Shown here: positions 11,775-54,678 of the stretch, piece by piece
Position numbering within the stretch: position 1 is the stretch's first letter
Layout: each line of letters begins with the position of its first letter
NCBI GenBank assembly: GCA_000934665.2
Contig: JYFJ02002464.1
Span: 1-56,640, forward strand
Reading direction: 5' to 3'
Length of the DNA: 56,640 nucleotides
From: Catajapyx aquilonaris
Lineage: Eukaryota
Made by a program: the position numbers and the translations under genes
The notes under the pieces: generated by a model
Seen by the model: the letters and a program-made list of their open reading frames with translations, nothing else
The model's database searches: none
Told to the model about the DNA's origin: nothing

Positions 11775-14700
11775 TCACATTGGGCTGGTTCTGGCTGCAG
11801 TGATGGAGTCTCGGGATCCAGCCCGCATCAGTGCCATGTTCTGCATCCTTATGGAACTGCTGGGCCGCCTTTGCTCATCGTCCCCTTGAAACCCCTGATG
11901 GAAACCATGGATGGAAACAACAACAAATTAGTCATTTCACTTTGTTGGTTTTAATCAATTTTTACCTGATTAGTAATCCCTATGCTGTTCCTGCTTGCGA
12001 CGGACATGCTGCTCCTTGAATCCTGCCTGCCTGGCATGAACTGGGACATCCTTCGCTGCTTTTCCAGGACCGAGCTACGCCTCTGGGCTACTGCGTGGAG
12101 CGTGTCTCTTCGAAGGGACAGGTGCCGCATCACTGATGGGCTGCCTCCTGCGCCCTCTCCTGATACCAATGAGTTGAGCCTCTTCCTGACTGCAGCATCC
12201 AGGTTCCCGATTGGAACCTTCTTGTTGTTTGACTGTTGCCTATCCAGCTGTTGGATGGTCTTTCTACGGTCCAGCCTGTCTCTTCCAATGACTGGCTCGT
12301 CGTCATCTTCTAGTCCTGTCATCTGCTGGAGGTGATGCACGGCCTCCACAGCATTTTCTGGTGTTATGTTGCCATCCTTGTCAACAGCTTGCTTATTCTT
12401 GCAGCAGTCCAGTCTGGTCAAGGACAGAATGTGAGCAAAGGTCTCTTTACGATGGATGAACATTGCCACAAATTGAATGATCATGATCAGGGCAAAGAAG
12501 AAGACGAAGACAAGGCCAATGGGTTCCAGCTGCAAGTACTCCTTGTTCACAGTCACCTGTTGGATGAAAATGAAAAATTAATTTTGTCCTCTAAAAGAAT
12601 TGTATTCTTCATACCTCGTGTCCAAATTTTGCATAAGTCATGTTGACTTTCACTCCAAGGGGCCATTGGACGTGAATCATGTCCTTATTCAATTGCAGAA
12701 GGAATACGATCGTCACAAACAGGGAGTTCATCATGATGAATGCAAACACACAGAAGTCTCGCAATTCCTTCAAATCATTTTCCAGTTTTTTCTAATGGTT
12801 TCAGGTGGAAAGATGGATATGCAGCATCACAGAGCATGCAATGAAGATACAATATTGCATTAGATTAGACGGATAGATTTAAGCAAAATTACGTGATCTA
12901 CGAGCTAATGTCCAGTGCATCGTCTTTGACAAAAACTAATTTCAAGCAACATTTTAAAATAAAAACCTACTCTCTGCTCTTTATTTTCATCAATTGGATG
13001 CAGGTATTTTTTAATAAGCTCGTCCCAAAACTGTATCTCTGGAGTGGAAATGTAGTCCACAGCTCCAATTCTTATGCTCTTGTCTTCTATCCAGTAGGGA
13101 TTCTTCAGGTCATCCCGATATGTCCTCGGTTCTAAATTACATAGAGTTCAGGGAAATCCATTCATTAGGAAGTGAATTGAAAAGTATCACATGTGTCAGA
13201 AATCTTCAGCAATTATGTTACACATATTATATGACACATTATTAGCACCCATATGCTGTGGGAAACATAATACAGTATGTAGATGAAACACCATAATTAT
13301 ATTTCACCTACCAGTAACGGATTCCTTATCTGTCTCGTCATCCTCTTGCGACTCTACTGCAGCCTCCTCCGCCAAAGATGCCAAATGATCTGATGACAAA
13401 AGACCTCTGCCGGACATAGATTTTCTCCTCATCATTTGTGGATCAGAATTTCTCTCCAAGGAATCCATCCTTTTTGTCAATGTTTCCATAGAGTCGGCTA
13501 TCCTTAGCAACTGCTTTTTCTCATCAACAGGCTTCTCATGAGTGCAACACATGACTTTGAACAAGCCAGCCAAGCTGAATTCTATTGACCCTTCTTCATC
13601 CTTTCCATTGCCGGGCAGCTGGTTCAGGAAACCCAGGAGACCTGTCTTCTTGGCTGCCTTCTTGGCTTCCTCAGCTTCACGCTTCTCTTTTTCCACCTCC
13701 TTACAGGGGAGAAATGACATGCATTATACATCAGATTACATCTAATTGTTCCACATGCATTTTTGGCTGTCAAAGCAATACCAAGCTGTATTTTTTTACA
13801 GGGCCTTTCTAATCTCTCTACATCTGCTTAACAAATTGGCACATGCAATCTGTCATCTAACATGAATACATCATACAGTATAATTAAGTTACCTCTTTGC
13901 TCTTCTTTGTGGCTGCCTCCCTGGTACCCCAGGTGACGTTATTGAGGTTGAAGAGTGAATAGATCATGAGGAGCAAATACATCGATGGAACCACGCAGAG
14001 ATAGAGGAATCCATGCATCAAGCATGAAAATTCCTTTGGATGCATAATTGCTGTTATGACAAACACCATTATAATGAAGAACATGGACAGGCTGGAAGGA
14101 GCAAGTATTCCATCTCTTGTTATTTCCAGGATGATGCCAACTAACACAGCTACCATCACCAGTGCATAAAATGTACTAAGCACCTGGGCTACAAACAACT
14201 GGAAAAAATTTAATGGTGTAAAAGATCAACCCAGCACCACTTACACAGATGGAATTCAAACAACTCACCTGAAACTTAGATTCAAAGAAGTAGCATATAA
14301 CCATAAAGAGGAGGATCGGTATGACATTGTATTGGAAGGAGCTCCATTGGTCTATGTTGAATGCAGCCACGAATGCTCCCACCAACATTAGGAAGATTGT
14401 TCCTGGCCCAAGTATAGTGCCAACCATAAGCATGATCTGGTAGGAAACGTATGGCATGGAGATATTGTCATTGATCACAACAGTCCGCTTATAGTCCATT
14501 AATAGGTCCATGATGTTGGCCATGGTGCTGGGAACCCATCGCCTACGCTGATTGTAGAATTCATTGAAACCTTCAGGAGCATGTGTATAAGCATCACTTG
14601 CAGCAGAGTATTCTACACGGTAGCCTCTCTGAAGCAGGAGGGTGCATAGCCAACGGTCCTCACCTGCATAGAAGAGTATTAAAAATTTGTTTAAACAGCA

Positions 14701-17700
14701 ATAGGTACAAAGAAGTGCATGTAATGTTCTGGTCAAGTGCAGCTGCATTATTGCAGCATTTTATTTTCTCTAAAATAGTCATTTGAAATTAGACTCACCC
14801 TGATCATACTGAACGTAATCCCTTGCCTTTTCAGGCTTGATGGTGTACTTTGCCATTACATTTTTGTCCATGAGTGCTACAGCCCTAAAGAGCGAGAAGC
14901 ATCCTGGACTGCAGAGTACACATCCAATAACATGTTCCGTTGCCTTCTGCATCCAGTGACCAATGGCATATTCAAATTTTTGATACCAAACCATTGGCCC
15001 AGCTCCAATCGGGTGAATCCGTCCGCATGCAGCTCCTAGATTGCGATTCTTTTTCATCAGATCAATCAGCATGTGTACTGCATCTGGCTGAAAGTCAATG
15101 TCACCATCCAGGGCCAGAAGAAAAGTATTTTCTGCAACAATCGCCTTTCGTTCAACTGCTAGAGGCAGCTCCATCAGCTTGTGTCCCAGCAGGTAGTACA
15201 TGTACATTACCTGTAAAAAAATAAAATTGTTGTTTCTAGCAGTAAGCACCCAAATTAAGAATTGCAACATTTTGACAATACCTGGCTCCAACGCTTGCGA
15301 TGTCGTATCTTAGCCTTATTCTTAAGATGTACAATCATCTTGGTTTTTCCAGGAAGTGTCCACTCAAGACGTCCTCCATACGGAGTTGGAAATGCTGTTG
15401 GAGGTCGTACCCTCAGATTCAGGCCATGGACATGTGATGCAGCCTCATCTGTGGTCCTCATGAAGTCCTTCACATAGATGTTCACAGAATTCTCAGTCTC
15501 ATCTTCTTCGCTCATCACAAAGGCATCGTCAAAAAATATGTGTGTCTCAAACTCATAGTAATCTGGAACCACAACTTTCAATAGCTCTTGTGCATTTCTC
15601 ATTGCACTATGGTGTGAATCCATCCGCATGATTGACTTGAGCATTTCCATCATTTCTTCCCTGGTTTCGTGCCACATTGTTGCACAAGCGTAAATTCGTG
15701 GGATCTTATCCCTTTTGCGCACCTCACCTCCATCCTCAGCAGCATCAGTGACCATTTCAGCCAACACTGTTTTGCTCTTGGTCGTGTAATAATGGTCCAT
15801 AGGCTTTTCCATGTCATCCTTTTTGATCTCGCCTTCATCATCATCATCCTTCCTCCGGTTCATGGCCAATGACTGATCAACCAAAAATGCAGAATACATC
15901 GGAGCTGCAAATAACTTCTCAGTGGTTGCAAGACGCTCGCATTTGGGAGCCCATATATGCAGTGTAATCCAAGTCTGTGAGAACAGCCAGAAAAGCCAGA
16001 CATATGCATGCTGCTGAGAAATAAAGTTGTCGAGGAAATTTCCTAGAGGACATTCCCAGTACAAGTAGGGTGGCATCTGCCCATACATGAAGCAGGCATC
16101 CTCATTTCGGACTCCACATGCAGCTATTAGGAAGGTAATACCAGCAGGGACAGTCAGGCTGATAGGAAATGCGAAACTGAACCCTTGTATGCAAATTTTG
16201 CAGGCAAACTTTCCTGAAAACAAAAATATAACCAGTCATTCAAATTATCAACGTAGCAGATAGCATGCTGCTAAAAATTAGTCCATAAACTTACCAAATA
16301 CATAACAAAGCCAGGTGGTACCAACTTGAATCAAAAGGGTGTAAATGGCAGCATTGGCCCATGAGTAGTCATATGTAGCTTCATGGACAGGAGAGTTGCT
16401 GCTGGCCAAGTCAGAGAGTCTTCCAGGAAGGTCCGCCTGCACCTCAGTTGCATTAATATGATGCCTGTTGAAACTCTCAGAGAACATTTGAAATAGGTTT
16501 CCAATGTTCTCATTGTTCACATACAACAGTAGGAGCATGGACATGAAGAAAAGCATCATCTTCCATATGGAAATGAAGATGTAGGAGAAGTATCTTGTTT
16601 CCTGCAACCGTTCACTCACTCTTGCCATCTCTCTCACAATACCTGTAAATTCAGTGGCTACTAGTGATATTCTGAAGCATCAAGACACATCATGTAATAA
16701 CCCTGTGTAAGTCGAAAATTCTACTGATTAAAAGTGACATTTTAAAAGCTGACTGAGTCATACATTTTCTGATAAACGCTACATGAGAATATTACAACAA
16801 TCTCAAGTCACACAAGAAATTCACTAGCATTACATGCTATAACATTAATGCAACATCTAAATGTGCGCATGCTACTCATGTGCTCTCAGGCATTGCAATA
16901 TTATTTGAATTATTCCAATAAACCAAAAAAATATTTCGAGCCAGCCACTTTCCAATAAATATTTATGGAAAGATATACACCAACAAGATCCATACAACAA
17001 AACATTAATTTGTGCAATACTCACGAAGGGGAGAGTTCCTGTCCACATAGTTTTCCCACCAGGCAAATGAGATGAGGAATACTGATAGAGGAATGAGCCA
17101 CAGACTTCGGGCATTGTGGGTGTCCACCAGGGGCCATACGAAGAAACTAGTTGCTTGGGCGAGAATTGCCAATACGTCTATCACCACCTTTACTGCATAG
17201 AGCGGTTCAGTTGTGCTTCGTGACATCAAACCTACAAAGTGATTGTTTTTACACTTACCTCATAAATACACTATTGAAATACCGGTAGCATTTTTATGAT
17301 ACATCAATATTAGTCTTAACTAACCCAAGATCCCAGGCACAATGCACACGCAGTTGGTGAGCATGAGCCCTTTGATAATGTCAAGTTCTGGAAGAATCAT
17401 GAACACGAGGATTGCAAGACCCAAGGTGTGGAATGTTTCACAGACGAAGACCAGAAGGAAGTCCACAGGCATTGGTTTTTTCCAGGACTTGAACATGCAT
17501 ATTCTGGAAGACCGAAACAGAGTTTCCAACTCTGGAACCAAGTAGGCAAAGAGCAGGCACCAAATCCACTGGATTCGTTCTAAGTCTGGTATCTCAAATG
17601 TGAAGTCCTTGTCTGCTCCTGCAATAATAATTGCATCAACCACGCGGTCATTTACTGATTTTTCACACTCATTATGTTGCCATAATTATTCAGAAAGAAA

Positions 17701-18738
17701 GATTTGGCCATAAAAATAATATTTCCAGATTTCCCCACAATGTAACAGTAGTGAAAATTCACCAAAATTGTTGATTTTATTCATAACTCTATTTTAACTT
17801 ATTTTCTACTTGATAATTGGATTAAATTCAATGGCAATGTTTCATACATACCATATTTTTCCTTGCAGATGGGGACGGAGCGGTGGGGTCTGAGTTGGGA
17901 AGTCATGAGGAGCATGGTGCCCTTTGAGATCAGGCCACCACCAAGCACTATTGTGAATGTCAGGATGTACATAAACACTTTGAAAATCTTCATTATTGTG
18001 TCTGCAAGGCTTTGGTCTCTCATAGACCCTGAATCTTCCTTCGGAGGAGGATTTTGAAAAACGTCCCATTTTTTAATCGGCGATGATGCACTGCTGTTCC
18101 TGTTACTAATGAGAAAAGGAAGCATGATAGTTTTAGTGTCTAATGTATGCATGGGGAATTCAACAAAGCCTTCAAGAATATTAGTGGCAAATATACTAAC
18201 AGGAGTTGGTTCAAATCAACAAATAACTCTCTGGACAACCCTTATTATAACTCCTCTGACCATTATCACCAAGCATGATGGGCACAAATAATAATTTACG
18301 TGACCTGGTGTGACATACAGACAACTCATACACAAGAAAATCAGATATGATGAATTTTTCGGGAATTTTTCTGGGGATGGAGTCACCAAAAATATTTGTT
18401 GGCTAAAGCTAAAGATCGCCATCACAAAAAAACCTGCATTCACATATCAATCTAGGCTACTTTAACAAGGTGTGGCTTCCATCCCAGAATGGAAAATACA
18501 AAGAAATATGCGAATGGATTGCAAGTGCGTGTTAGCCGCACAAATGTGAAGTTGTCCTTATAGTTTTTCATCAGATTCATGTCACTTCTTAAAAAAATGG
18601 CGTTTTCACTTAATGTGTCAGATATACACTGAGATTTTCCTATCCTTACCTTGTTCCACATACGTTCTCTGCCAAAGGAGTGGTCTCATCTCCTGAAAAG
18701 TCATCTACAACCATGAATTCCCTCTCTAGATTCTCCAT
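11775..18738 (-). CDS. Chitin synthase, divergent tandem paralog with 14 coding exons and an intact frame
   Basis: Exons: 18738-18650, 18099-17852, 17618-17325, 17231-17025, 16642-16295, 16213-15282, 15210-14799, 14663-14269, 14198-13893, 13699-13312, 13131-12971, 12791-12615, 12556-11966, 11894-11775. Motifs [23 protein letters not shown] and TWGTRE are intact. The protein starts [22 protein letters not shown] and ends RTSPM*. Confidence 0.93.
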
Positions 18739-18902
18739 GGTTGAAGTGTTATGTCTGTAACGTCCTTCTAACTTATAGGACCTCCAGTATAGGCATGAGC
18801 CACTGGAATCACAAGCACCACATCATACACACTTTGTCAGAACAAAACTCTATGCAATAAAAGTCCCCAATATTGCAGAGTCTGTCTCAGCAGGAATGAA
18901 AG

Positions 18903-19036
18903 AGATAATCTACTCTGCCTTCCAAGATAAGGTCAGGATCAGCTGATAATAGTGTCCAAAGGTACACACAGGATGAGCATATAATAATATGTCAATGACG
19001 TCAATACCTATCACATTCCAGGTGTTGGATAGATAA
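18903..19036. promoter_or_regulatory. Cluster of five WGATAR sites plus a CRE palindrome upstream of the paralog ATG
   Basis: AGATAA at 18903, AGATAA at 18925, TGATAA at 18944, CTATCA at 19008, AGATAA at 19031. TGACGTCA at 18996. Confidence 0.45.
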
Positions 19037-21524
19037 CAGTTAATCCGTACCAATACGAAATAACGTTTCACAAGTTGATGCACCTGATGGATACCAGTCG
19101 CAACGCAAGACATGCTTACCAGGTACAGCCAATCACAAATGGGCCCCCACCCAAAATGGGCAATGTCACATATACTGCATAATATGCACCAGATGGCTTT
19201 AAAGGCGTCATCATCGTCATTTATCGCAACATTTTCCATATTTATAAGGAGTAGTCAGCTGTGAAGGAGACACTTCTGTTATGACCTAGAAATGGCACAC
19301 ATTCATTGAAGTAGAACAAAAATACGTAATAAACAAACAAAACATGTTAGTGGTAAAAGTAAGATTGGTTAATGTGTATAGAAATTGATAGCTTGAAGGC
19401 TGTAACACATCTTACAAGTGTAAAGCGGGATAAGTTGGGATGAAGTCATGATTTGTTCAAACTTACATCGCTAACTCCAACCAATAATATTCCCTTTATG
19501 AGAAATGGCGTAATTTATTTTCTGTTAATTTATTAGCATAGTGTGTAAAGGACGTGAGCAGGAAAGTTTAGAGAAAAACTCGTCATTTTGTGATTCATTA
19601 GGGGACTCCCCTTTGAAAGTGCACAAGGACAATTATTATTATCATGCAGAGATATTACTAAACAGACTGAGAGTGCTGTACACTATCATAACTTGTATTG
19701 TGTCACTTGCACCCAGCTGACACCATTTGTGTGTAAAATATTATTATTTTGTGAACCACTTTCCCAAGTCCTACCGAATTCTTTAAATCCCTGGAAAACA
19801 TATCCCCAGGCTTGTTTGCCATCATTATTTTATCCCAACATCTTCTGTTTGTGAGAGACACAGTCACAAATTAATTACAATAAGAAGCGGTTTTAACTTT
19901 GACACTGGCAGCTATGTAAAGGTGGTAATGAGGAGTAGTAGTGACGTAACCTCGTCGAGATGAATCAAGACGTTGCGTTGGCATGGCCACAAGATGGACA
20001 GTACTGGTGCAGTCATCCAAAAGTCATACAGATGACACCATCGTCACCTCCATCTCTCTCTACCATAAATTCATTTCTGCCCTTCCTTTCCAAGAAACAG
20101 ACTTTCATTCAGTTTTGCCATTACTTCCTATTATTTTTACCTGTGCTTTTTAAAAAAAATACCAATGCCATTTTAAGTGCACCAGATAATAAGTGGACCT
20201 GTAATCATGACTCGCCTGTCCTGCCCAATAATGTTAGCATTTAAAATAAATCGAGTACCATTGTGTAGAAAGGGGTATAGATAATATTTAAGTGCCACTG
20301 CCCTGAGAACAATAGGGAACATGATAGCAAAATCAAAGAAAGGGGGGGCGTAGCCAATACAGGAACAATTGGGATAACTATAAGAAGGGCCACTACAGGG
20401 GCTACGGCTACCCCACAAAGAAGTGAGCGAGTCTGTAACAAGGACATAGCAGAAAAGAAGTGAAGAGAAAGAAGAGAACGAGACAGAGAGTTGGAGTGAA
20501 CATCAAGCAGAGGGCAGTTAGTAACCAGAAACCAGCCAGCAACAGTTCGAGTAACATCCTGCAGCAACCTTGCTGCCACGACCACCCCACAAAGAAAGGG
20601 TGACTTGACATTAAATCAGCCACACCCTTTCTGCCAAGTAATGGTCAACAATGGGCATGAGTCTGTGTGTTATTATGACATATGATAAAAGACTTGTTAT
20701 AAAATGCTAGTAAATAAAGCTAATTATTGTGCATTGAGAACTGTCCTTGAATTGCTCTGTCTCTTATGGCCTGACGTTTAGCAGGAGGAAATGAACAATT
20801 GCTATTTGTTTCTCTCTTGCCCAGCTTTTCCATTGCTTATCACAAGGAAAGTGGAAGCATGATTATCGTATTCACTGACGTTTCAGTGTGCCAAGCAGTG
20901 TGCACAGGGAACTCACTGTGAAGGAAGTAATCTATCTAGTATTGTGTTGCAGTGATATTCCTGTACATTTCAACACTGATATTTTATCAACATGTCAATC
21001 CCAGATCTTCCTCCATCATTTTCCTTATTATGATATGACATTGCAAAGTCGTAATGTCACCACCACAAAATTTTGAATGTAAAGCTCTTAGGTTTTACAA
21101 GGTATTTTAAAAATTTATAGCAACATTCGATGTCTTGGTATAATTGACATGAACGAAACAAAAGTGCCACCATACCACATGACTACAAAAAATCAATATA
21201 AAAGTAAATTTTAAGAAATGTCAATCAACCAGTAACTTTTCATTTTTTTTTGTTTCATTGCTACGAACTTGGTTTCATAGATTTCTGGCAAATTATGTAA
21301 TTGTAATTAGGTTTATTTAGAAAGACTTCAATTCTAGGCGAATCTGATAACAATCTTAATATAATATCCAGCAGCCTTTATTCTCCACTTGGTAAAAACT
21401 ATACACAAAACTGCAGTCATTTTTTTATCGAAATAATCACCCGAAAAATAATATCATTAAGACACACAATCTCCATCCACTCATTTTAAAACTGAGTCAT
21501 CATCTTGTTGCCACCAAAAAAAAA

Positions 21525-24500
21525 TCACATTTGGCTGCTTCTCCTTGTTGGAATCGGTCCTCCCATGCCTCCTCCGCCCATCTCCAGATCATGGAAGGAA
21601 ACAGACGAGCGTATTCCAGCTTGGGTCAGGTTCTGCATCCTCACTGACCCTCTGTCGTCATCACTTTCATATGCCTGGAAATATGTCAATTAAGGCCTAA
21701 CCAAATGCCACAGCATGACTTGAACAACATACTACACGCTCTCTTGTAAACAGACAACTTAGTTAACTACCTCAAAATTTTACTTTGGGTTCTCTCTCAC
21801 CTGATTGGCAATTCCAACAGGCTGGAAGACGTTGCCATTTGTGACAGAGCTCCTGCTGCGGGAACCCTTCTTGTTGTACTCATTGTTGGCTCCCAGCGTC
21901 TGCATCTGGGATGTCCTCCTCCTCTCGGCCAGAACTGAGTTCCGCCTCACTGCCAGTGCTTTGATAGTTTCCCTTCGAATAGAGAACTGCCTCATGTTAC
22001 CCAACACAGGGGTGCCCTCTGGCCCACCGTCTGCCTGGATGGACATGAATCTCTTCCTAAAGGCCACATCTAGTGTCCCAATGGGACGCTTCTTCTGCTT
22101 CTGTTTCTCCAGCTGGTGGATTGTCCTTCTGCGATCGAGCCTGTTTCGTCCTGAACTTGACTCATTCCCATCTTCATCATCCAATCCAATCAGTCTCTGG
22201 AGGTTACGTGCTATTTCGACAGCATTCTTGTCGATGAAGGCATCTTCAGAAATGTCATCCACTTTGCGGTTGCAGCATCCCAATTCAGTGGAGGCCAAGA
22301 TATGTGAGATGGTGCCAAATCGATGGAAGAACATGGCCACGAACTGGATGATCAGGATCAAGGCGAAGAAGAACACGAATACGAGACCAATGGGCTCCAG
22401 CTGGAGGTACTGCTTAGAGATGATCACCTAATTGGAATAAGGAAGTGCTTTCAAAAGGTATTCTTCACTAGAAATTCTGAGCCCTAACTTGTTGCACCTC
22501 TAACCTTTGCGTTATCAACAGAATGAAGCAAGTAAAAAATTTGTGCAACCGTACCTGATATCAATGAATTACACCTAATAAATAATTTACTTCTGGTGGT
22601 ATGAATAATGAACATTCAAGAATGGGTCTGTTATAACACATTATGTTGAAATCAATTCAATATTATCGGTCACAAAATATAAGCACCACCTTGCATTATA
22701 TGCTCTGAAAAATTGCTCAAAATTTTCATGATTGTAGTACAAATGCAAAGAGTCATAATATTTTTAAAGCATAAAAGTCCATCACATACAATATGCAGGA
22801 ATGGTATAACAAGTGCAAGAGACATGACAAGAATATGAAATTGAGAGTGCACCGTATCTAGGCATAGTAAATCAATCGCATGTGTCTCAGAAGGATAAGT
22901 GCTCTCCTGTATTCTGATAAGAAATGTGCATTGCAGAAGTGCTGCTAAATATAATCAATTTTTCAGAGAAGAAAGATAAATCACCTGCGATTGAAGGGTA
23001 AGAAAATGCATTCACGATAATAATTTTTTACTGGCAAGGAATAATCTAGTGTGTATTATAATTATAGGAAACAAAAAATACCTCTCGATAGTTCTGGAAA
23101 AATTACTTTAAAATGAAGTAGCTGTTATCTTCACACACTGTGTGAATGCCATTACATTAGTCAGTTAAATGTCTCCAAGGCAATCCCCCTGGGAAACTTT
23201 GTTCATGTACAATATTTATATTTACACTGACAGTTAGAAACTTCCATTTTTTTATACACCTGATAACCTGTTGTTACTCAAAACACAACCACAAATTTCA
23301 TGCAAATCCATCCAATTGTTGTAAATTGGACTGTACAATGTTACTCTCTGTGATACCCTTTCTATGTACAATATGCACTGACTCCTCTATACCACACAAG
23401 TCTACTTACTCACTGGTCCCCCTGAAAAAGAAGGCTTTCTGATTTACTGCCAGCAAACAAGATCTTTAAAAAAAAAACAACCAATGTGAAGTGACCAGGA
23501 TTAGCCAAAAGATGAACACAACTCACACAAAAGCAGAAAAGTCAGCCAGACCAGTCACCAGAGAGAAGTGAAAATAACGAGGGGGGTGGAATAAAACGGC
23601 AAGGCAGCAGTGTTGCAGAAAGAGAGAGACAGAGAGTGAATAATATCCCGGGGGAGGTGTGCCCAAAGTTCAGTTTGTACCTGTTCGGTCTCCTCCACAA
23701 CTGTGATATTGGTCTTAACCCCGAGGGGCCAGTTAATGTGAAGTTCATCCTTATTGAGCTGTAGCAGGAACACGATAAGGATAAAGAGTGCATTGAACAT
23801 GAAGAAGGCAAAGACTGACTTGTTCCTCAACTCCTTCAGTTCACTGGCTATTCTGGCCTGGAAATAATAGACACACTGTTTTGAAGCATTGGGATTGCAT
23901 GTCCGGCTTGGGCGTTGGGAGGTTTGGGATGGCGAGAAAAGGTAACCTCTGGCTACAAGTCCGCTGGTCATGATCGCATGAAAACAGAGTCGCAAGCACC
24001 ACGCACGCGAAAACCCAGATCACTCAATAAGGGGGGGACCTTACCTCAGAATCATCTGGTGAGAAAGAAATGTTAAGCTTCACCCCAAGTGGCCATCGGA
24101 TGTGAAGCTGGTCCTTGTTGAGTTGCAGCAGGAACACAATCGTCACAAACAGGCAGTTGATCATAAAGAACGAAAACACACTCCTGTCTCGCAAGTCTTT
24201 CAGACCAAGTGCGATTCGTTTCTGATTGTGTGCAGTGGTGGTGGTGATGTCGCATGCAAATAAAAGGTGGCGGTTTCATGCAGGTCATATATGTACAGAG
24301 TCAAAGAGTGAGACAGAGAGAGACTGAAAAATTGGGACTGCACGGGATTTAACGAAACAGACATGGAAACCTGTAAAAAACCAATCAGTAATACATCCGG
24401 GACCAAATTAATGAATGGTGCACTTCGTAAGTCACAATTATGAGCGGACTTGCCAGAGGAACTGTCTTCTTGTCAGCATGCTAGCAAGGAGACTTTTCAC

Positions 24501-27500
24501 TGCCCTTTGTGTCATACACCTCTCCATAAAAATTACGCTTTTAAAGCAATTTTCATTAAACATAGAGCTGGTTGAAAAATATTTTTCCTTTGGGTGTATG
24601 GTTATTTTAGCAATAGAAGATTTGACAGCTAATCTCACAACATTGTTTCACGCAGTTTTACAGAGGAATGCAAAATAATACACTGCACAAAGGGTAGTGA
24701 AGTGCATTGTTGTCCCCTCATCTGTCAGATGTCTATATCACAGCAGCTACATTATTTTGTACTTGGAACACATGCATTAATAAATTTGGTGTCACCTCAA
24801 AAATTATAGGACAAGTATTTGACACCAATATTCCTCGTCAGACTTGAATAAGCTTCCAGCAGACTAATGCATTGTAATTGCATGGAGAGTCTAGCTTACC
24901 TGCTGCTCAGGATTATCATCAATAGGGTACAGGTACTTCTCCAGCAGGTCTTTCCAGAATTGGATTTCAGGCCCTGACAGGTAATCAACTGCTCCTCTCT
25001 TCAAGCTCTTATCCTCAATCCAGTAAGGGTTGATCAGATCATCTCGTTCTTGTTTCGGTTCTGAATAGACACAACCATTGGCGTTAGGTACGTTGGATCC
25101 TGAACAGCCGTAACGTGTTGGATCAACCTTAACATGTCTCACCTAGTGACTCTGTGTCCTGGTCGTCGTCGTCATCCACCTGGTCCGCTTCTGCAGGATC
25201 CTCAGGTAATGATCCTAAATGATCCCCAGATCCCACTGCACCAGCACCACCAGCCCTGACAGAAGCATGGGAAAGAGACCTCCTTCGCATCCCCAGCTGT
25301 CCGTGTGGGTCCAGAGCCCTCTCTATTGTGTCAAGACGTTTCGTCACAGTCTCCAAAGAGTCAGCTATCCTCATGAGCTGCTGTTTCTCATCCACAGGTT
25401 TGTCATGGGTGCAAAGCATGCACTTGAAGAGGTTGGCAAAACTGAACTCAATTGACCCTTCCTCGTCCTTGCCATTTGGAAGGTTCAAGAAGGCCAAAAG
25501 CCCGTTCATCTTCGCCTTCTTTTTGGCTTCCTCAGCATTACGTCTGTCTTGCTCCAATTCCTAAAGAATGGCCAGATTTGGTTTTAGATGTCCAGGTTAT
25601 AGAAAAAGGTACAAATCAACGCAGTACTGACCACCTTCCTCCTTGAGTACACTTCCCGGGTTCCCCAAGTGACATTATTAAGGTTGAAGAGTGAGTAGAT
25701 CATGAGGAGCAAGTACATGGAGGGCACCACACACAGGTAGAGACACCCATGCATGATGCAGTATAACTCCCATGGATGCAAAACAGCCGTCACCACAAAT
25801 GTCAGGATAATGAAGAATAAGGACATGCTGGACGGAGCAAGCACTCCGTCCCTTTTTACCTCCAGCATGATGCCCACTAACACTGCGACCATCACCAGGG
25901 CATACATCGTGCTTAGAATCTGAGCTAGAAACAACTACAACCCAGTGTTAGTGCACGCATTAACACAATCGTTAACATTCTGTAAATAGTTGCAGACACT
26001 GGTAGTCACTTATTCAATCCACCAAGGGGAAACTTATTTAATGACCATCTACTAAAAAATACGGCTATTCAGATTTTCTTCATTCCGCTAAAACCAAACA
26101 GCAATGCAAAAGCGCAAGCAGGCAAAGCAGCAAGCATTTTTAAAAAACATCCTTACCTTCTTGGTCTTCTTGGTCTGGACCTCTCGAGTACCCCAGGAAA
26201 CAACGTTTAGGTTCGTGAGTGAGTAGATGATCAGGAGCAGGTACATGGAAGGGATGGAGAGGAGGTAGAGGCCTCCAGGTATAATGCACATGAACTCCTG
26301 GGGATGGAGGCATGCAGCAATAAAAAATGATCCGGAGAGGGCTATCAAGAAGATAGCTGATGGAGATCCTATGCCGTCCTCACCCAGCTGCAGCGCGGTA
26401 CCAACTATCACAGCCATCATAATCAGGGCATAGGCCGTTGATAAAATCTGAGCCACCAGGATCTGCATGCCACATTGCAAAACATAAATCGCACACAGAT
26501 AAGCACAAGCCGCACAAAACACTGAAGTTCTTTGGGACAATGCAAATGTTTGCATCGCAGCAACTCACCTGAATGTTAGACTTGCACACAAAGCAGACCA
26601 CCATAAAGAATAGAATTGGAATGATGTTGTAGTAAAACGAGGTCCAGTTGTCTATGTTGAAAGCAGCTACAAAGGCTCCCACCAACATAAGGAAGATGGT
26701 GCCTGGTCCAAGGATCGTACCAGCCATAAGCATCATTTGGTAAGCAATGTATGGCATTGAGATGTTATCGTTGATCTTAATAGTTCGCCTGTAGTCCATC
26801 AGAAGATCCATTATGTTGGCCATGGTGCTGGGAACCCAACGCCTACGTTGGTTATAGAATTCATTAAAGCCTTCAGGACAGTGTGTGTAGGCATCACTTG
26901 CAGCTGAGTATTCCACACGGTAGCCTCGTTGAAGAAGGAGCGTGCATAGCCAACGATCCTCACCTAGGTACAAATACAAATTATTCGACATAACACTCCA
27001 AAATACAACATTGTTATTGACTAGTGAATTGCAACTCACCCTGATCATACTGCACGTAATGTCTGGGTTCATCCGACTTGGTGGTGTATCTCCTCATGAC
27101 ATTATCATCCATAAGGGCCTTTCCTCTAAAAAGGGAGAAGCACCCTGGACTACAAAGGACGCACCCAATCATATGCTCAGTTGCCTTCTGCAGCCAATGA
27201 CCAATGGCGTATTCGAACATTTGGTACCACACCATCGGCCCACTCCCAACTGGATGGATCCGACCACAAGCGGCTCCAAGGTTACGATTCTTCTTCATCA
27301 GATCAATCAGAAGTTGCACCGCATTGGCCTGGAAGTCAATATCTCCGTCCAAAGTCAAAAGGAAGGTGTTCTCTGCCACAACCTCCTTGCGGTCAACTGA
27401 TATCGGCAGTTCCATCAGCTTGTGTCCCAGGAGGTAGTACATGTACATCACCTGAAAAGTGGAATCATAAATATCGCACTGACACACTACTTCACTTTCA

Positions 27501-30500
27501 TGAACAGCCTGTAAAAATCCAAACATTTGTGTTGCTTACCTGGCTCCAACGTTTACGATGTCGTATCTTGGACTTGTCTTTCAGATGGGCAATCATTTTA
27601 GTCTTTCCAGGTAGGATCCATACAAGACGTCCACCGTAAGGTGTTGGGAATTTCTTTGGAGGTCGTACCCTCATGTTGATGCCATGAACATGCGATGCAG
27701 CTTCATCCATAATGGACACAAGAAGCTGCACAAAACGGTTGACTACATTCTCGTCCTCGTTGTCATCACTGATTTCAAAAGCGTCGTCAAAGAATATGTG
27801 GGTCTCAAATTCATAGTAGTCAGGATCCACTATCTTCAGGTACTTCTGTGCATTACGCCTGGCACTTTGGTCTTCATCCATCCGGAGAATTGACTTCAGC
27901 ATCTCCATCATCTCTTCCTTCGTTTCATGCCACATTGTTGCACATGCGTAGATGCGAGTGATGCGGTCAGAGTTACGAATGTTGCTCTTTCCACCAGCTG
28001 GTGAACCACTGGACTCTGTCATCACTGATATGGTTTCATAATATTGAGACATTTCCGCATCCTCTATTGGTTGGTCCAGTAAATCCTCCGTTTTTACATC
28101 GCATTCATCATCTCGGCTCCGGTTCATGGCCAAGGACTGATCAACCAAGAATGCTGAATACATGGGCGACACAAACAGCTTTTCAGTGGAAGCAAGACGC
28201 TCGCATTTTGGGGTCCATATGTGGAGAGTAATCCAGGTTTGTGACAGGAGCCAGAGGAGCCAAACCCACGCATGCTGTTCGGAAATGAAATCATTGAGGA
28301 AGTTTCCACGAGGGCATTCCCAGTAGAGGTAATTTGGAAGCATCCCATAAAAGAAGCAAGAGTCTTCATTGCGGATCCCACAAGCCGCTATCAGCAAAGA
28401 GATTCCCACTGGGATCGTCAAACTGACAGGAAATGCAAAGCTGAACCCTTGGATGCAGATCTTGCATGCAAATTTGCCTGAAAGGAGGAACATAAATAAA
28501 ATAATTACAGTGAATCACTTGATATAAATGCATCAGACTCTCACCGAAAATGTAGCAAATGTAGGCAGCCACTATCTGAACCATGACGGTGTATATAGCC
28601 GCGCTGGACCATGACTTATCCACCAGCACCTCATGGAATGGAGTAGCTCCATTTGGAAAGTCAGATGGACTTCCAGGAAGGTTCCTCTGCAACTCAGTCA
28701 CGTTGAGGTCATGGGTGCTGAAGCTCTTTGTGAACATCACAAATAGATTCCTGACATCCTCTTGGTTCACATACATTATTATCACCATTGAGGCAAAGAA
28801 AGCAATCATCTTCCATACAGAGATGAAAATGTAAGAAAAGTAGCGGGTGTACTTCAAACGTTCCTTCACTTTCGCCAGCTTTTTCACGAAACCTGCAATT
28901 GACAAATGCCGAGCTGATAACGCTTTCAAAATCCATGTGCAATAATTTATTTGAAATTTCATTGCCTTGCAAGATGGCCAGTCATTATTTCTCAAATACT
29001 AAATTGCTCACATGTGAAAAGTAGAAATAGAATTACCTATTGGTGAAGCCTTATCCACGTAGTTTTCCCACCACGCAAAAGAAATGAGAAATACAGAAAC
29101 AGGTATGAGCCACAGGTTGTGGTTCTTGTGGCTGTCAACAAGCGGCCAAAGGAAGAAGCCACTTGCTTGGGCCACGATGGCCACAATGTCTACAATCACT
29201 TTCAAGCCACATCGAGACTCAGACCTGCTGCGAGAGAGAAGACCTGCAGAACAAAATAAAGAATTAGCAAAATATTATAATGTCAAGGATAATGCTGCAA
29301 TTAGTAAGATACTGACCCAAGATTCCAGGCACAATGCACACACAGTTGGTGAGCATGGCCCCCTTGATGACATCAAGCTCAGGAAGGATCATGAACACGA
29401 GAAGTGCAAGACCCACAGTGTGGAACGTCTCACAAATAAATACCAGGAGAAAATCTCCAGAAAGCGGCCTCTTCCAGGACTTGAAGACACATATTCTTGT
29501 GGCTCGAAAGAGAGTCCCCAGCTCTGGAACAAGAAATGCAAAGAGCAGGCACCATATCCACTGGATGCGCTCCAGATCTGGTATGTCGACTGTGAATTCT
29601 TTGTCCTGTCCTGAAATAGTAAGTAACATTAAGTATTTTCCCTTGGTATAGTCAACGAGGATTTAAAAGGTAATGATGCTTACCCCACTTTCGGTTGCAA
29701 TAGGAAATGTTTCGATGGGGTCTTAGTTGAGAAGTCATAAATAGCATCGTTCCTTTCGTAACAACACCTCCAACAAGCACAACCGCAAATGTGAGAAGGT
29801 ACGTGAACACTTTGAGCATCTTCACTGTTATTTCCATGCACCTCTGGTTGACCATAGAACCAGAGTCGGCCTCCGGAGGGAGAATCCGAAACACGTCCCA
29901 TCCTTTTGTTTCAGATTGACTGTGCTGACTGCAATGGAAAGAAAAAAATTAGTTACTTCATACATTTTTTGTCTATATTTTTCACACAATCAGTACAGAA
30001 CTTGCTCAGCATATGAATTATTTTTTTGGAATATAATTACCGGTCTACTATAGACAGTGGTTTAATCACAACAATTGGTATCTGCCATGAATGTTACATG
30101 AATGTTATGAGAGAACGAAAGGTGTGACCTGTCATTTTCCTTAAAAAAAACATGACTTATTGACAATTGTGAGGGAGAAATAGCCCGTTATAATATTACC
30201 TTTGTTAAAGAGGGTCAGAAAAATAAGTGATCCATTAATAAAATCTCATTCACTCATGAGCTCATTATAATGGGCTATTAAATTAGTTAAAAAGGATCAA
30301 GTATGAGTCAGAAAAATTAGTGTTTCATGAATAAAATATATCTTCAATCACGAGCAACTGCGACACCGATAATTTCAGAGCATCAATTTAAATGCCTGAA
30401 ATGGTTCCACTCTCTGACCTAGAAATCTCTTCAACGCACACACATCATCACTCATCAGTGCCTGCAAAATAAGCCCAAACCCCATTAGTAACGAAAATGT

Positions 30501-32755
30501 AATGTTCTGGATGACCTCAATTATTGCATTTCCTTTTCTTCGAGCTGCCACAGAGAGTCAGTGTTCCAGGCAAGCGAGTAAGAAAAAAAAAAAGGTAAAA
30601 GGGAGAGTGGTGATGGTGGCCATGAGACAAAACTTCAGCCTTGGATTCGGGAGCGGACGTCCGGCCCTTTCCGGACATTTTATTTACCACTGTGCTCCAA
30701 GAAGGAAATTCCTTCTGGACATAACAAGCCCTAGACCCAGCTTCGAATGGTGGTCACCCAACTTTCACCAGCTGCCTACGCAGCTATACCAGGAAAAAAA
30801 AATGACATCACTCCCAAACCAGTACCGGTGACTTGAACTCCAGAATGGATCATGATCCCAGTTACGAAACAATCAGTACACAAAAAAACGGACATATGCA
30901 AAAATGGCATGGAAAATGTTTGGTTGTGGTGGTGGGGGACTTATAAAGAAAATAAAGTCACGCAAACTATAGCAAACAGGAAGGCTTCAACTTTCTGGAG
31001 CGTGAGGATTGGCCACTTCCACGGGGACCTCGTTTTGAAAACTTTCGCCTTTTGCTGCCTTCTCTTTTATGGGTCGACCAACCGCCAATTTTTATATGCC
31101 AACCAGGTGGTGTCATCTCCTGAATCAACCAACTGGAGTGAACAATCCATGTATATTTAGGGCATAATTATAGGGTCAATGTTCCGTGACGGAAGTGCTC
31201 TAAATCCAGAGTTGACCTCATGGGAAGAAAAAGAAAAGACCGCAAAGATGTGTTATTATTACAGCATGATCTGAAGTACCGCGAGTGGGCGGGATTTTGC
31301 GCAAAAAATAAAGTCGCAGGTGAAGGTCTCTCAGGTTTTCAATGCCATACAAAATCGTCTTTGAATAGAGGAGGGTTCCAGATGGGCAGATTCAAAGGTC
31401 AAAGAGGCCCTCTTGCATACAAATAGCCTCCTCAGATCTATACTTGTGTATCAATTTATGTACAGTACTTAGACTCAGTTACAAGAGTATGGTTGGCAAG
31501 ATGTGTCCATTAGAAATCTAGGTCCTGTGTGATAATTCAAAGTCCTGCTTCCTTTTCCAGAAGCTAACCACACCCAAATAAGAGGCCGCGCCCATTTTCT
31601 CTGGCCAGTACACCCTGGCAACAATCCCCCGTTAATTCCGTCTGTGCACGAAACGATATGACCAAGGACGACCGGCGGGACACTAATCTCTGGTCGGCCC
31701 AAAGTGGTGCAGTACACACACTCATTTAATTGGACAGGGCGTGTCTCAATAGACAATAAAAGCATCAGGAAGTGGGCATTCATCCATCAGCCTCGAAATA
31801 TTTTCTTGGGTCTGTAACCTTCAATAAGGCAGATATGGAATGTGCTTCAGTCAATAAATATTATCTTGTCAATAGAAGACTATACTAAAAATAGTCGGAC
31901 TTTCATTTCCTGGAGAAGTCTCTGCTTTTCCCAGATAAACAACGTGCCATGACAAGGAATTCGCATCGGTCACTTGCTGCTTGCGTAAACAAGTTGCACT
32001 CCAGAAAAGTTTGCAAACTGGGGCAAATTGCATGCACCAACACGGTATATAATAGCAAACGACAGAAACATTGTTCAGTATACACAGTACATAAAAAGGT
32101 GACATTCTGGCCTTTTAGAAGGTCGAGTCATAAACAACCAGGCGACTTTTAAAATCAAGACTATAGACTTTGAGGATAGAAAAATATCGTGGGCCGTGAA
32201 TTCCCAAGTAGACCAGCTTGTACTGATCGGCCTTTCAAGGACGGAAAGCGACTTGGAAGATGGAGAGAGAGAAAAAAGGCTGAGAAGTACCGTTACCAAC
32301 TGCACATACTCAACTCACGTATGTGTAACTGTACTCGAACTTAACGGTATGCGTATATAAAAACACATCGAGAGTGCAAGTGTTGAGATTTTAATTACCT
32401 TCACGGGTTTCTGGTTCGCTTTTATTACACTAACCGGATTATTTAGTGGAACACTTTCTTTAACATATGTATACACAGTACAAGGTGTTCGGATAATTTT
32501 GAATTTGTTGCAAATTTTTCATGATGGTCGAGTGATTCGCGAAATAAGTGTAGCAATATATGCCCAGCTATTTTCACAATTCGATTTCTAATAACTCAGC
32601 AGAGGTTACACCAATTGAGTTGCATCATTGGCTGTTATGTTCTACTTGTTTTCTTACCTTCCACCATAAATATCCTGGGTCAGAGGTGTTGTTTCGTCCC
32701 CTGAAAAATCGTCAGGGTCCATCAGGTCCCGGTCCAGGTTTTGCATGCTGGGCAT
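21525..32755 (-). CDS. CHS1: Chitin synthase 1 (class A, kkv-like) with two pairs of alternative exons
   Basis: Exons: 32755-32658 ([32 protein letters not shown]), 29928-29684, 29610-29317, 29243-29037, 28892-28545, 28477-27540, 27451-27040, 26963-26569, [26462-26157 or 25934-25632], 25560-25143, 25060-24900, [24221-24045 or 23857-23681], 22427-21801, 21674-21525. Motifs [31 protein letters not shown] and SWGTRE are present, with a charged coiled-coil-like segment after the 5-TM cluster. Confidence 0.95.
23681..23857 (-). CDS. CHS1: CHS1 alternative 177-nt exon, downstream copy (8a/8b-type)
   Basis: cag|[59 protein letters not shown]|gtac; 59 aa, phase 0-0. Confidence 0.92.
24045..24221 (-). 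CDS. CHS1: CHS1 alternative 177-nt exon, upstream copy (8a/8b-type); its frame is absent from the ORF track
   Basis: cag|[59 protein letters not shown]|gtaag; 59 aa, phase 0-0. Confidence 0.92.
25632..25934 (-). CDS. CHS1: CHS1 alternative 303-nt exon (end of 5-TM cluster to WGTRE), non-canonical copy
   Basis: tag|[36 protein letters not shown]...[36 protein letters not shown]|gtcagt; open frame, phase 0-0. An alternative donor 3 nt earlier is possible. Confidence 0.85.
26157..26462 (-). CDS. CHS1: CHS1 alternative 306-nt exon (end of 5-TM cluster to WGTRE), canonical CHS1-like copy
   Basis: cag|[38 protein letters not shown]...[37 protein letters not shown]|gtaagg; 102 aa, phase 0-0. Confidence 0.92.
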
Positions 32756-35700
32756 CTTGATGGCTGCTCAGAGGCCCCCCAGGCCTGCACCCCTGAAATA
32801 ATTAACAAATATATTTTTTAGTGGTGTCATACAATATCGCATTGACCTCAATATTAGCACTGACACAATAAGCATAATATTATCACCACTGCAGATAATG
32901 ATCATGACAAAGCAGCTGATTATTCAGCCCTTATGCAATTTCAGTGCTAATTTTGTCACTTGTAACTCTTAATTCACAAGCTCATCTTTTCATAACCTAC
33001 TTGTTAGTAAAAAGCATCGTGTGGGGGGAAACTTTGAAGACACCTCAATTGGAACAAGTTCGCAAAGAAAAAAATCCGCAACGTCGCAGACCCAACAAAA
33101 GCAATAAAATAACAATAAGCAGTTTTTCTTCGGGGTGTTCAACTCCATTGTTTGGGTTCTTTTCTTGTGTGTGTGTGATATGATGTAAAGTAGGTCTGAC
33201 CAGTGAAGCTCGATGGCTGAGTTTTGAGGCTTTTGCTCTCTTGCGCACAGTTGAAAGTGTGTATTTACGAAGAAGAAGGGAGGTTGGGGAGGAGGAGAGG
33301 AGAAATTCGGCAGGTGAAACAAAAACAACAGGTATGAGCTTGGGGAGGTTGATAAGACACACACACACGTACGTACGATCATGCACACACGTACACGAAA
33401 GGTGGGCACAGGTTGGTGGCGGCCTCCAAAAAGCCCAGGTCCTACCAAGGACGTCCAGAGAAAGCCTTATTCTCTCTCTGCCTTCAAATAAAAGAAGACT
33501 GGATCCGGAAGATGCTCAGCAGAAAATATTTCCAGGAGAAAAAGAAAAAAAAACACATGCTGTACTATGACACATTGCGCAACTTGTCCTTTCTCTGAAT
33601 TTTGGGTGAGAAATGAGCAAGTTCCGTTTGTGAAGAATCAAGGATTTTACTGGTGCCCTAGCCATACGTGCATCAAAAATAAAGCTGCATTCCTCAAGAA
33701 CAAGTTTAGAGCCGGTTTCTCTTCCCACTATTGAACTGCTTTTAAAATAGCTGATAATGTGCTTCTACCAAAACACATTTCCTTATTGGAGACGCCCACT
33801 AAGAACAGGAAACCGCCTATGCCCAGATGTTCATGTCCTCTTAGCTAAGGTGAAACCGGGTTTAACCGGGGAATATTTATCCAACTATGGTGCCAAAATT
33901 TGGCAAAACCTATAATGAGTATGACTGTGACAATCAACCGACATAAATGAGATGGCCTGCCGATTTACCACTTAGTAGTATTATTCACGCATAGATGGCG
34001 CACACTCCCTCTGTACACTCCTGCCACACTCAGGTCGTGCGAGAGATAGTGGTACTATCAGATCGGACAAACATCCGACGGAGAGAATAAGCCTATTAGG
34101 AGACACGCCACTTGATTCGACCTGACAGTATAGCTCATGTAGAAACTTTCGCAGTAAAACTAGTCTGTACCAAACTCGTTAGGTTACGCAAAATTTTTCC
34201 ATACTGACATGAATCCATTAGAAATACGTACAGTACTTTTCAACTTTTCCATCTGGATCAAGCTATAGGTCAGTTATAGGCAGGTTTTACTGCTATGGAA
34301 AGTCATACAATGGATTATTCTTACAAGCAGATGATTCAGGCACAAGGTATTATCGTCATTAAGGCTACAGGTTATGGAAATAAAGTTCGCGAAAATGCCT
34401 GCAATTTTAGCATGAATCGAACCATTGTTCCTTACAAGACAAGCAGGCTCGTTCAGCTGAAAAGCAGTCGTGCCAGTATTGCCATTCGAAGTGTTTATAC
34501 GACCGTTTCGCAAAATAAATACTGGCTGTCACTCGTTGCATTGAAGAAAAAAAAAAACGCATGCAATTCAATGGGAATGGCTGGCAAAATAACATTTCAA
34601 GCGGGTATGATTTGTAAGCTTCAACAATGGGCGTTGGTAACTTTACCGTCACGAAACTGCACTAAAGTTAAGCACTGGCTAAAATTACTCTAGACCGTAA
34701 TATAAATCAAATTAGCATTTGGCACAAAAATGTTGCCGGCTTCTCTTTGTCGCAAAAAGTGCTGAAGTGGACATATTATTTAAAAGGGGGCCACCCTGAA
34801 ATTTCCCCCTGTAAAACCTTCATGAACGGCCCATAAAAATTCCTGGCTCCAACACAAATGGTATACTATTTCCCCTGGGATCTCAGCACCTTTCACCCCT
34901 ACTTTTACCCACTGGAATGCCTTGAAAAATACACACTCCAGTTCCGATTCTGGCCACTAAAGTTGGCTTTTAAAAAGTCTTTCTTCAAGCAAGAGAAGAT
35001 AGATGCAGGTCAGGTTTCGTCGAGCTATCATTCTTTCTAGAGAAAGACGCCCCAGGGGTTTCCGGTACCGGTACGTTGAACCAAGTGGGCAAGGACGGTG
35101 CATGCCATCGACTGCTGACCAAACGAAAGAAAAGAAAAACTTCCAACCCTTTTTGGACGGATAGGGCCAGCTTCGGATTGAGGTTTGGGGGTCACCTGGA
35201 GAAAGAAAATGTACCGTTTCCTTGGGCTTATGGTGGAGTACATGCAATGAGGCCCTGGACATTCACTATACTCCAACTCTNGATCGCCTCTGAACTTGGT
35301 CACGATTGTAGACAAAGATAAAATAAAAGGAGCCTGGGAATTCTTACATGGGGGGTCTCTCTTTCTCTAATATAAAATGTGGCTAAGACCGCACATAAAT
35401 CTGCCTTCACTTTTTTTTTGCGATTGGCCGGCGCCATCGTGTGCAAAAAGTAGGTGCATTGAGGCTATATTTAGGTTCAGGTACACCTGTTGTTTGTGCA
35501 ATTTGTTAGCCAATTAAACAGGCATTTCGTTTTTGAACCAGGTCTGATTACACTGCATGCTGTGAAAATAATGTTAGATTTCTATATACGTACATTAAAT
35601 TTGAGTTCGTAAAACCGGGTCTGAATGACGCCTTTAGTTCATTGCAAAATGCTATTAAATTGTACTATTATTTTACAGTCGGTTTTGCATTATTGATGCG

Positions 35701-54200: not shown

Positions 54201-54678
54201 TATTCTCGCCCACACACAGATCGTTGGCAGTTGGTTCAGGAAACTTTGCACAATCCAAGCTCTCGGGCCACTGGAACCCAAACTTGTTCATGAGGCTCTC
54301 GCACCCATGCCTTGCAGACAGACACAACGAGCGGCAGGGCGGTATGGCCCGCTCTATAATAGTGCACACCGGAGCGTACATGCTGCACAGGAAAAACTGC
54401 AGGTCCGGACTGCACTTGACCTTAACCAGCGGGAAAAACTGATGCACCTCAAGCCCCGCATCTTCTTGCTTCTGGTGGTTCAGCAAATTGGGCATGATAG
54501 TCTCATTGTACTGTATGTCCTTACACAGCGGGATTGTGATGGGTTCGCACCGCCCGTGGTGCGGAAGGTTGTCCCGTTCCGACACCCGGCTTGACGTCTG
54601 CGTCTGGCCCGATCCAGCCACGCACATGACCACCGCAATGAGCCCCCACATAATCAGGCACGTACTCACACAGGCCAT
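51290..54678 (-). CDS. fz: Frizzled receptor, Fz1/2/7 class
   Basis: Exons: 54678-53980, 52558-52179, 52071-51633, 51553-51290. Signal peptide, then [46 protein letters not shown]. 7-TM motifs [27 protein letters not shown] and [10 protein letters not shown]. KTxxxW motif (KTIVSW) and a C-terminal EVHV*. Confidence 0.95.

Follow-up and report, generated by a model that had tools for sequence, protein, structure and literature searches.

Two kinds of described system lie closest to the locus considered here. In vertebrates, Abascal, Tress and Valencia (2015; PMC4494069) described splice isoform separation, and the accessible part of their study gives 11 clear events together with many in-between cases. 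In insects, the chitin synthase gene CHS1 has alternative exons a and b of 177 nt (59 amino acids), as in CHS1a/b of Bactrocera dorsalis, and CHS2 is a gut enzyme without alternative exons, according to the available excerpts of PMC3619095. We compare these with a 56,640-nt stretch of Catajapyx aquilonaris DNA (assembly GCA_000934665.2, contig JYFJ02002464.1, positions 1 to 56,640; hereafter the window, meaning the whole stretch analyzed), whose minus strand carries a tandem pair of intact chitin synthase genes, CHS1 (32755-21525) and its paralog PAR (18738-11775). CHS1 carries alternative exons at two sites, 9 and 12, and PAR has one exon at each. In the account that we favor, and consider probable, the exon pairs are ancestral, the gene was then duplicated in tandem, and PAR was afterward fixed as the form containing exons 9b and 12a.

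When three full-length chitin synthases were used as tblastn queries against the window, the matches fell into two collinear sets, both on the minus strand. Exon junctions were assigned by enumerating GT/GC..AG pairs and scoring them against five guide proteins, with manual checks; the junctions between exons 7 and 8 of PAR, exons 6 and 7 and exons 10 and 11 of CHS1, and the last intron of both genes were fixed by eye from homology or motifs. Each gene has 14 exon positions (16 exons in CHS1 when the alternatives are counted) and an open frame with no internal stops, and the introns of both are all GT..AG. The predicted products are 1601 amino acids (with exon 9a) or 1600 amino acids (with exon 9b) for CHS1 and 1557 amino acids for PAR, and the two are 66% identical. 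Family PF03142 (Chitin_synth_2; cut-off, 27 bits) matches the exon 7 and exon 8 frames of PAR with 51.9 and 47.9 bits and those of CHS1 with 48.4 and 46.4 bits. The motifs EDR, QRRRW, and WGTRE, the catalytic signature motifs of chitin synthase, are present in both translations, with WGTRE in exons 9a and 9b of CHS1 and in exon 9 of PAR. Because these motifs are intact, PAR is predicted to be an active enzyme. Rebuilding the genes exon by exon showed that all 13 intron positions and phases coincide, as an earlier note on this DNA had stated for the positions, and exons 3, 4, 7, 8, 11, and 12 are of equal length in the two genes. The N-terminal match and the common stop context described in that note were also recovered, the former as an 11-residue stretch in exon 1 of both genes and the latter as CAGCC.AATGTGATTTT at 21537 and 11787 (minus strand), at the stop codons of CHS1 and PAR.

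PAR is most closely related to the CHS1 gene beside it. Three protein searches returned chitin synthases only; PAR exon 6 is 71% identical to that of the adjacent CHS1 and at most 63% identical to any database chitin synthase retrieved, and no database protein exceeds about 77% identity to CHS1 exon 6. When the columns of exons 9 and 12 are left out, CHS1 and PAR pair as sisters at a support of 100 both in a FastTree phylogeny of 67 rows (without 18 proteins, namely models in which two copies are fused, redundant isoforms, short sequences, and Batillaria) and in an IQ-TREE phylogeny of 31 rows under LG+C20, which agrees with the expectation in the earlier note that the constitutive exons would group with this CHS1. 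In the LG+C20 tree the pair adjoins Collembola (Shimodaira-Hasegawa-like approximate likelihood ratio test [SH-aLRT], 89), among hexapod and crustacean CHS1/kkv genes. Taken exon by exon, the adjacent CHS1 is the sequence nearest to PAR in 9 of the 12 constitutive exons, with no mosaic pattern, and it ranks third to fifth in the remaining three, each of them either strongly conserved or of very short length. We note that in the same LG+C20 tree a long-branch Orchesella gene (P0145/P0143) joins Allacma CHS1 (P0167), and a Neodiprion 'chs-2-like' gene (P0182) joins the CHS1 of the ant Monomorium (P0069), both at 100; several 'second' chitin synthases may thus be lineage-specific duplicates rather than members of one old clade.

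At each of its two alternative sites CHS1 has a tandem homologous pair of exons, E9a/E9b and E12a/E12b, all of phase 0-0 and each with its own AG and GT sites. E9a (26462-26157), the canonical exon, ends in WGTRE and is 91% identical to Anabrus CHS1; its length is 306 nt (donor GTAAGG), a correction of the 303 nt given previously. E9b (25934-25632) is 303 nt long and open throughout, with an AG acceptor, CTAAC upstream of it, and a GTCAGT donor. Both exons encode membrane helices directly after the catalytic domain. E12a (24221-24045) and E12b (23857-23681) are both 177 nt long and encode the 59-residue helix already known in insects. In PAR, exon 9 (14198-13893; 306 nt) and exon 12 (12791-12615; 177 nt) each stand singly, as the earlier note had reported. 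The introns flanking PAR exon 9 are 70 and 193 nt, and those flanking exon 12 are 179 and 58 nt, so that there is no space for a second copy or a hidden relic. Across the window, a six-frame profile scan detected three exon-9-like segments and no more (the following hit had an E value of 0.46), and tblastn likewise yielded three exon-12-like segments only. Competing RNA structures were sought near both clusters, and the inverted repeats detected are short pairs only (12-24 nt, 76-94% complementary), on which we base no claim.

The exon retained at site 9 of PAR resembles E9b. Amino acid identity is 76/101 to E9b and 56/102 to E9a, a recount that replaces the earlier figures of 75/94 and 52/94 and keeps their direction. 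PAR agrees with E9b alone at 27 amino acid sites and with E9a alone at 8 (sign test, p=0.002), and at the nucleotide level with E9b alone at 75 sites and with E9a alone at 17 (p ~0). PAR exon 12 is nearer to E12a at the DNA level only: it matches E12a alone at 40 nucleotide sites and E12b alone at 18 (p=0.005), with 24 and 7 such sites at third positions (p=0.003). In amino acids it is identical to E12a at 34 of 59 positions and to E12b at 32 of 59, exactly the counts given before, and the 15-nt identical run that had been pointed out between PAR exon 12 and E12a is present. K1 and the FVT motif are common to PAR exon 12 and E12a, and the other rows displayed are without both. E9b itself still looks constrained, judging from the share of third positions (12/17) among its private nucleotide changes.

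Both exon pairs are found well beyond this genome. Tandem copies of exon 9, with the a-type copy first, occur in 8 of the 231 database proteins with an exon 9 match, from Gryllus, Homarus, Frankliniella, Chionoecetes, Diachasmimorpha, Acromyrmex, Trachymyrmex, and Dryococelus (in our sample P0037, P0122, P0066, P0123, P0121, P0080, P0124, and P0109). Each of these models has about 100 extra residues, and they are probably misannotations in which two alternative exons were joined. Tandem copies of exon 12 occur in 15 of the 185 proteins with an exon 12 match, and the copy order in the window CHS1 is that of the fused models. In Eriocheir, annotated isoforms X1 and X3 differ at the exon 9 and exon 12 sites only, one exon substituting for the other. 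In an exon 9 tree of 71 rows (23 rows being omitted: the second copy of Dryococelus, which is very long, the incomplete copies of Trachymyrmex, redundant isoforms, and near-duplicates), an a-type clade of 43 rows, which includes chelicerates, myriapods, and E9a of the window, is separated from the 28 other rows with support of 100/100. E9b and PAR exon 9 are sisters within those 28 rows (100/99), the grouping that the earlier note had predicted. In an exon 12 tree of 114 rows, obtained by a quick search, E12a and PAR exon 12 fall in a 48-row clade (SH-aLRT, 96) that holds 14 of the 15 first copies, and E12b is placed with second copies, chelicerates, and myriapods. Many other pancrustaceans have both pairs in their CHS1, in the same order, which places the duplication of the exons before that of the gene in the window, in line with the order of events proposed previously. 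The earlier suggestion that PAR lost one alternative at each site also holds up, the pairs being older and a single exon being present now; E9a and E12b would then have been lost from PAR rather than never present. No description of the exon 9 pair was found in the literature searched, a body of work in which subscription journals were largely out of reach.

A later exon copy, or gene conversion, should leave E9b and PAR exon 9 more alike at synonymous positions than the rest of the two genes. We used Nei-Gojobori (NG86) synonymous divergence (dS) together with plain site counts. Four-fold sites are identical at 19 of 38 positions between E9b and PAR exon 9, and at 175 of 369 in the constitutive exons; identical codons among conserved residues number 38 of 71, against a fraction of 0.52 in the constitutive exons (resampling P=0.48). 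The NG86 dS of the E9b-PAR pair is 1.0, with most other exons at 1.35-2.44, and its ratio of nonsynonymous to synonymous divergence (dN/dS) is about 0.15. Identical runs of 14-26 nt occur in constitutive exons as well. The outcome that the earlier note had named as damaging, an exon 9 dS much lower than that of the flanking exons, was thus not found, as E9b and PAR exon 9 have the four-fold and codon identity of constitutive exons.

Transcript evidence comes from a public run, X1, whose kind is unrecorded and which holds 29% of sampled words. Its spliced contigs contain at least 8 of the 13 PAR junctions exactly as modeled, skipping introns with CT..AC ends, and one contig spans PAR exon 14 to exon 9. 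Because the contigs skip the modeled introns, PAR is evidently transcribed, and its spliced RNA has one exon at each of the two sites. A spliced contig also shows the last CHS1 junction; cover of CHS1 among the X1 contigs listed is thin, with no junction at E9a/E9b or E12a/E12b and no cover of the bin 25142-25752. A further contig (24241-24636; depth, 3.8) maps without splicing to a CHS1 intron and stops 20 nt upstream of exon 12a; it may derive from a retained intron, a precursor fragment, or another transcript.

The two genes differ in rate, and exon 9 departs from the pattern. In the constitutive exons PAR has 172-222 private amino acid changes and CHS1 51-69 (six outgroups), PAR evolving at roughly fourfold the rate of CHS1. 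Exon 9 shows an even or reversed balance, with 6-10 private changes in the CHS1 copy and 2-6 in PAR (nine outgroups), a contrast with the remainder of the gene (Fisher p, 0.003 to 4e-5). The pattern fits an exon that is constitutive in PAR and optional in CHS1; it would also fit if PAR were starting to take over the 9b role.

These results suggest the following history. The ancestor would have been an epidermal gene of the CHS1/kkv type with two clusters of tandem, frame-neutral alternative exons, and a whole-gene tandem duplication would have taken place within the lineage of this genome. The upstream copy, CHS1, would have retained both clusters and evolved slowly, and the downstream copy, PAR, would have undergone clean deletion of exons 9a and 12b. 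Lacking these exons, PAR would encode the 9b+12a form in all of its transcripts, and it may have assumed, or become specialized for, some of the work of the 9b/12a splice form. The subfunctionalization by isoform partitioning proposed in the earlier note is at most half supported: PAR is reduced to one exon per site, but CHS1 keeps open, splice-competent copies of E9b and E12a, so that the two genes have not split the isoforms between them. With both of these exons intact in CHS1, partitioning is at most under way.

Several points weigh against this history. At the protein level the exon 12 choice is undecided, PAR agreeing with E12a alone at five sites and with E12b alone at three, which is not significant. 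Only six columns of exon 9 are diagnostic of the a- and b-types of other species, and E9b has three a and two b states there and PAR exon 9 two a and three b; as these columns assign neither exon clearly, orthology of E9b with the second copies of other taxa is drawn from the tree, position, and order. Exon 12 offers only two diagnostic columns, too few to decide. In an approximately unbiased (AU) test on exon 9 alone (102 columns), placement of PAR exon 9 with the a-type clade survives (lnL -25.9, p=0.143). The dS values are near saturation (1.0-2.4), so the test for a younger copy is low in power. E12a and PAR exon 12 have identical codons in 22 of 32 cases, which is above expectation (P=0.04, uncorrected, six tests) and may hint at some conversion. 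Lastly, the group of divergent second genes used in the AU test described below was defined after inspection of the tree, and as the sample holds no protein named insect CHS2, the old-clade test is one against the divergent second genes retrieved.

How far do other histories account for the same observations? The gene duplication might have come first, with PAR exons 9 and 12 being copied later into CHS1 introns by unequal recombination and so creating E9b and E12a. Tandem genes in the same orientation favor ectopic exchange, and the fast overall evolution of PAR, the slight codon excess and 15-nt run shared by E12a and PAR exon 12, and an E9b-PAR dS that is the lowest among the long exons all lean this way. 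Nonetheless, such a donation is very unlikely, because it needs two independent insertions exactly at the ancestral sites and because insect and decapod CHS1 genes that show no such paralog have second copies in the same order; moreover, the four-fold and codon identity of E9b and PAR exon 9 equals that of the constitutive exons, which have long identical runs of their own. Insect CHS1 and CHS2 genes are often linked, and PAR could accordingly be imagined as the local ortholog of an old CHS2-like gene that looks youthful through concerted evolution with CHS1. The available part of PMC8002005 places insect CHS1 and CHS2 on one chromosome, and a non-a exon 9 with a first-copy-type exon 12 is found in the second genes of Ischnura-like, Ephemera, Tigriopus, and Orchesella, as it is in PAR. 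This origin is highly improbable given the support of 100 for CHS1+PAR in two trees, the 13 common introns, and the exon-by-exon proximity of the adjacent CHS1 without any mosaic. Forcing PAR to join the divergent second genes (Ischnura-like, Ephemera, Tigriopus, and one further relative, on the mollusc side) costs 53 lnL units and is rejected (AU p=7.8e-5); the concern in the earlier note that PAR might belong to an ancient CHS clade was therefore not realized among the divergent second genes sampled.

A different possibility concerns the present state of CHS1 rather than its past: E9b, and perhaps E12a, could be a silent relic, in which case CHS1 would make the 9a form only and partitioning at exon 9 would be complete. 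At exon 9 CHS1 lacks the slow rate that marks it elsewhere; the pyrimidine tract at the E9b acceptor is weak; and E12a has a long branch (0.69), with only 7 of its 18 private nucleotide changes at third positions. Yet E9b has an open frame of 101 codons, AG and GT sites, and CTAAC upstream of the acceptor, and both the third-position share of its private changes and its dN/dS with PAR exon 9 are those noted above, so that we think a silent E9b unlikely. We thus retain ancestral exon pairs, followed by tandem gene duplication and fixation of PAR as the 9b+12a form, as the favored history.

The remaining CHS1 exons, all on the minus strand, are exon 1 (32658-32755), placed by its conserved N-terminal peptide; exons 2 (29684-29928), 3 (29317-29610; 294 nt), 4 (29037-29243; 207 nt), 5 (28545-28922), 6 (27540-28477), 8 (26569-26963; 395 nt), and 10 (25143-25560), from the junction model; exon 7 (27040-27451; 412 nt), its acceptor taken from PAR homology (VMYMYY); exon 11 (24900-25060; 161 nt), its acceptor also from homology; exon 13 (21801-22427), whose junction to exon 14 is seen in a spliced contig; and exon 14 with the stop codon (21525-21674; ...SSQM*), from the same kind of contig. 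PAR, on the same strand, begins likewise with an exon 1 recognized by the N-terminal peptide (18650-18738) and continues with exons 2 (17852-18105), 3 (17325-17618), and 4 (17025-17231) from the junction model. Exons 5 (16295-16642), 6 (15282-16213), 7 (14799-15210), 8 (14269-14663), 10 (13312-13699), 11 (12971-13131), and 13 (11966-12556) of PAR have the junction model and a spliced contig in common, and exon 14 with the stop codon (11775-11894; ...TSPM*) comes from a spliced contig, as do, in part, the assignments of exons 9 and 12.

Elsewhere in the window, three long open frames at 44117-46281 (minus strand) match importin-beta families (PF25574, 204 bits; HEAT repeats; IBN_N) and make up a predicted importin beta-1-like gene upstream of CHS1. 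An open frame at 53887-54717 (minus strand) has a Frizzled cysteine-rich domain (PF01392, 124.5 bits). A 422-amino-acid open frame at 3336-4604 (minus strand) has no Pfam match; the remnant of a transposon and a lineage-specific gene are both possible. The ambiguous base N occurs at about 35200-35280, and X appears in two overlapping frame translations.

Compared with the insect genes, the exon 12 pair of this CHS1 is familiar: E12a and E12b have the size (177 nt) and position of the CHS1a/b exons and cluster with insect and decapod first and second copies. The exon 9 pair goes without mention in the accessible part of PMC3619095. From the sequences compared here, this second alternative exon cluster appears to be widespread in arthropod CHS1, in helices beside the catalytic domain. 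Its location may be of practical interest. In Culex, changes of I1043 to M, L, or F are reported to give diflubenzuron resistance (PMC7219787, in the portion accessible), and by Sabethes numbering (I1043) the residue is probably the I of SIPSMY in exon 9, a putative mapping. That residue is I in E9a and V in both E9b and PAR exon 9, and the next variable column, after SMYLLL, is I in 42 of the 43 a-type rows and M in E9b and PAR exon 9. Exon 9 covers the region of the benzoylurea target site, so the choice of isoform or paralog could matter for the interpretation of resistance genotypes and for annotation.

Like insect CHS2, PAR is an additional chitin synthase gene that has just one exon at the alternative site; it differs in being sister to the adjacent CHS1 and not to divergent second genes (in a sample without a named CHS2). 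A closer parallel is a second gene of Anabrus simplex (P0239), which lies on the same chromosome-size contig as its CHS1 (P0029) and is 87% identical to it over the full length (1333/1526). Like PAR, it has a b-type exon 9, grouping with the Gryllus second copy (SH-aLRT, 90), and an exon 12 of first-copy type; it is much younger, at 87% versus 66% identity to its own CHS1, and is an apparent independent repeat of the same kind of event. A non-a exon 9 with a first-copy-type exon 12 is also found in second genes of sawflies, damselflies, mayflies, springtails, and copepods. Perhaps the 9b+12a combination is a co-adapted form of the enzyme, in which two membrane segments work together, that has repeatedly been made a stand-alone gene in Pancrustacea, with CHS2 possibly the oldest case; we offer this tentatively and with more doubt than conviction.

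The vertebrate cases provide the broader comparison. As in the examples set out in the accessible part of PMC4494069, an old pair of homologous exons, putatively mutually exclusive here, was followed by gene duplication and then by a paralog with one exon only, the greater age of the exon duplication being evident here from both the trees and the database models. The clear events in that part of the study are those in which each paralog keeps a different exon. Here, by contrast, only PAR is reduced and CHS1 retains both exons at both sites, so that strict isoform separation does not apply and the locus belongs with the 'in between' class. It further differs in that two exon clusters have been reduced at once, and in that the genes are an arthropod tandem pair and not duplicates from a vertebrate whole-genome duplication. 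The locus thus shows, in an arthropod and at an intermediate stage, how gene duplication and alternative splicing can stand in for each other: PAR is fixed for a single combination of the two old exon choices, and all four remain available in CHS1.

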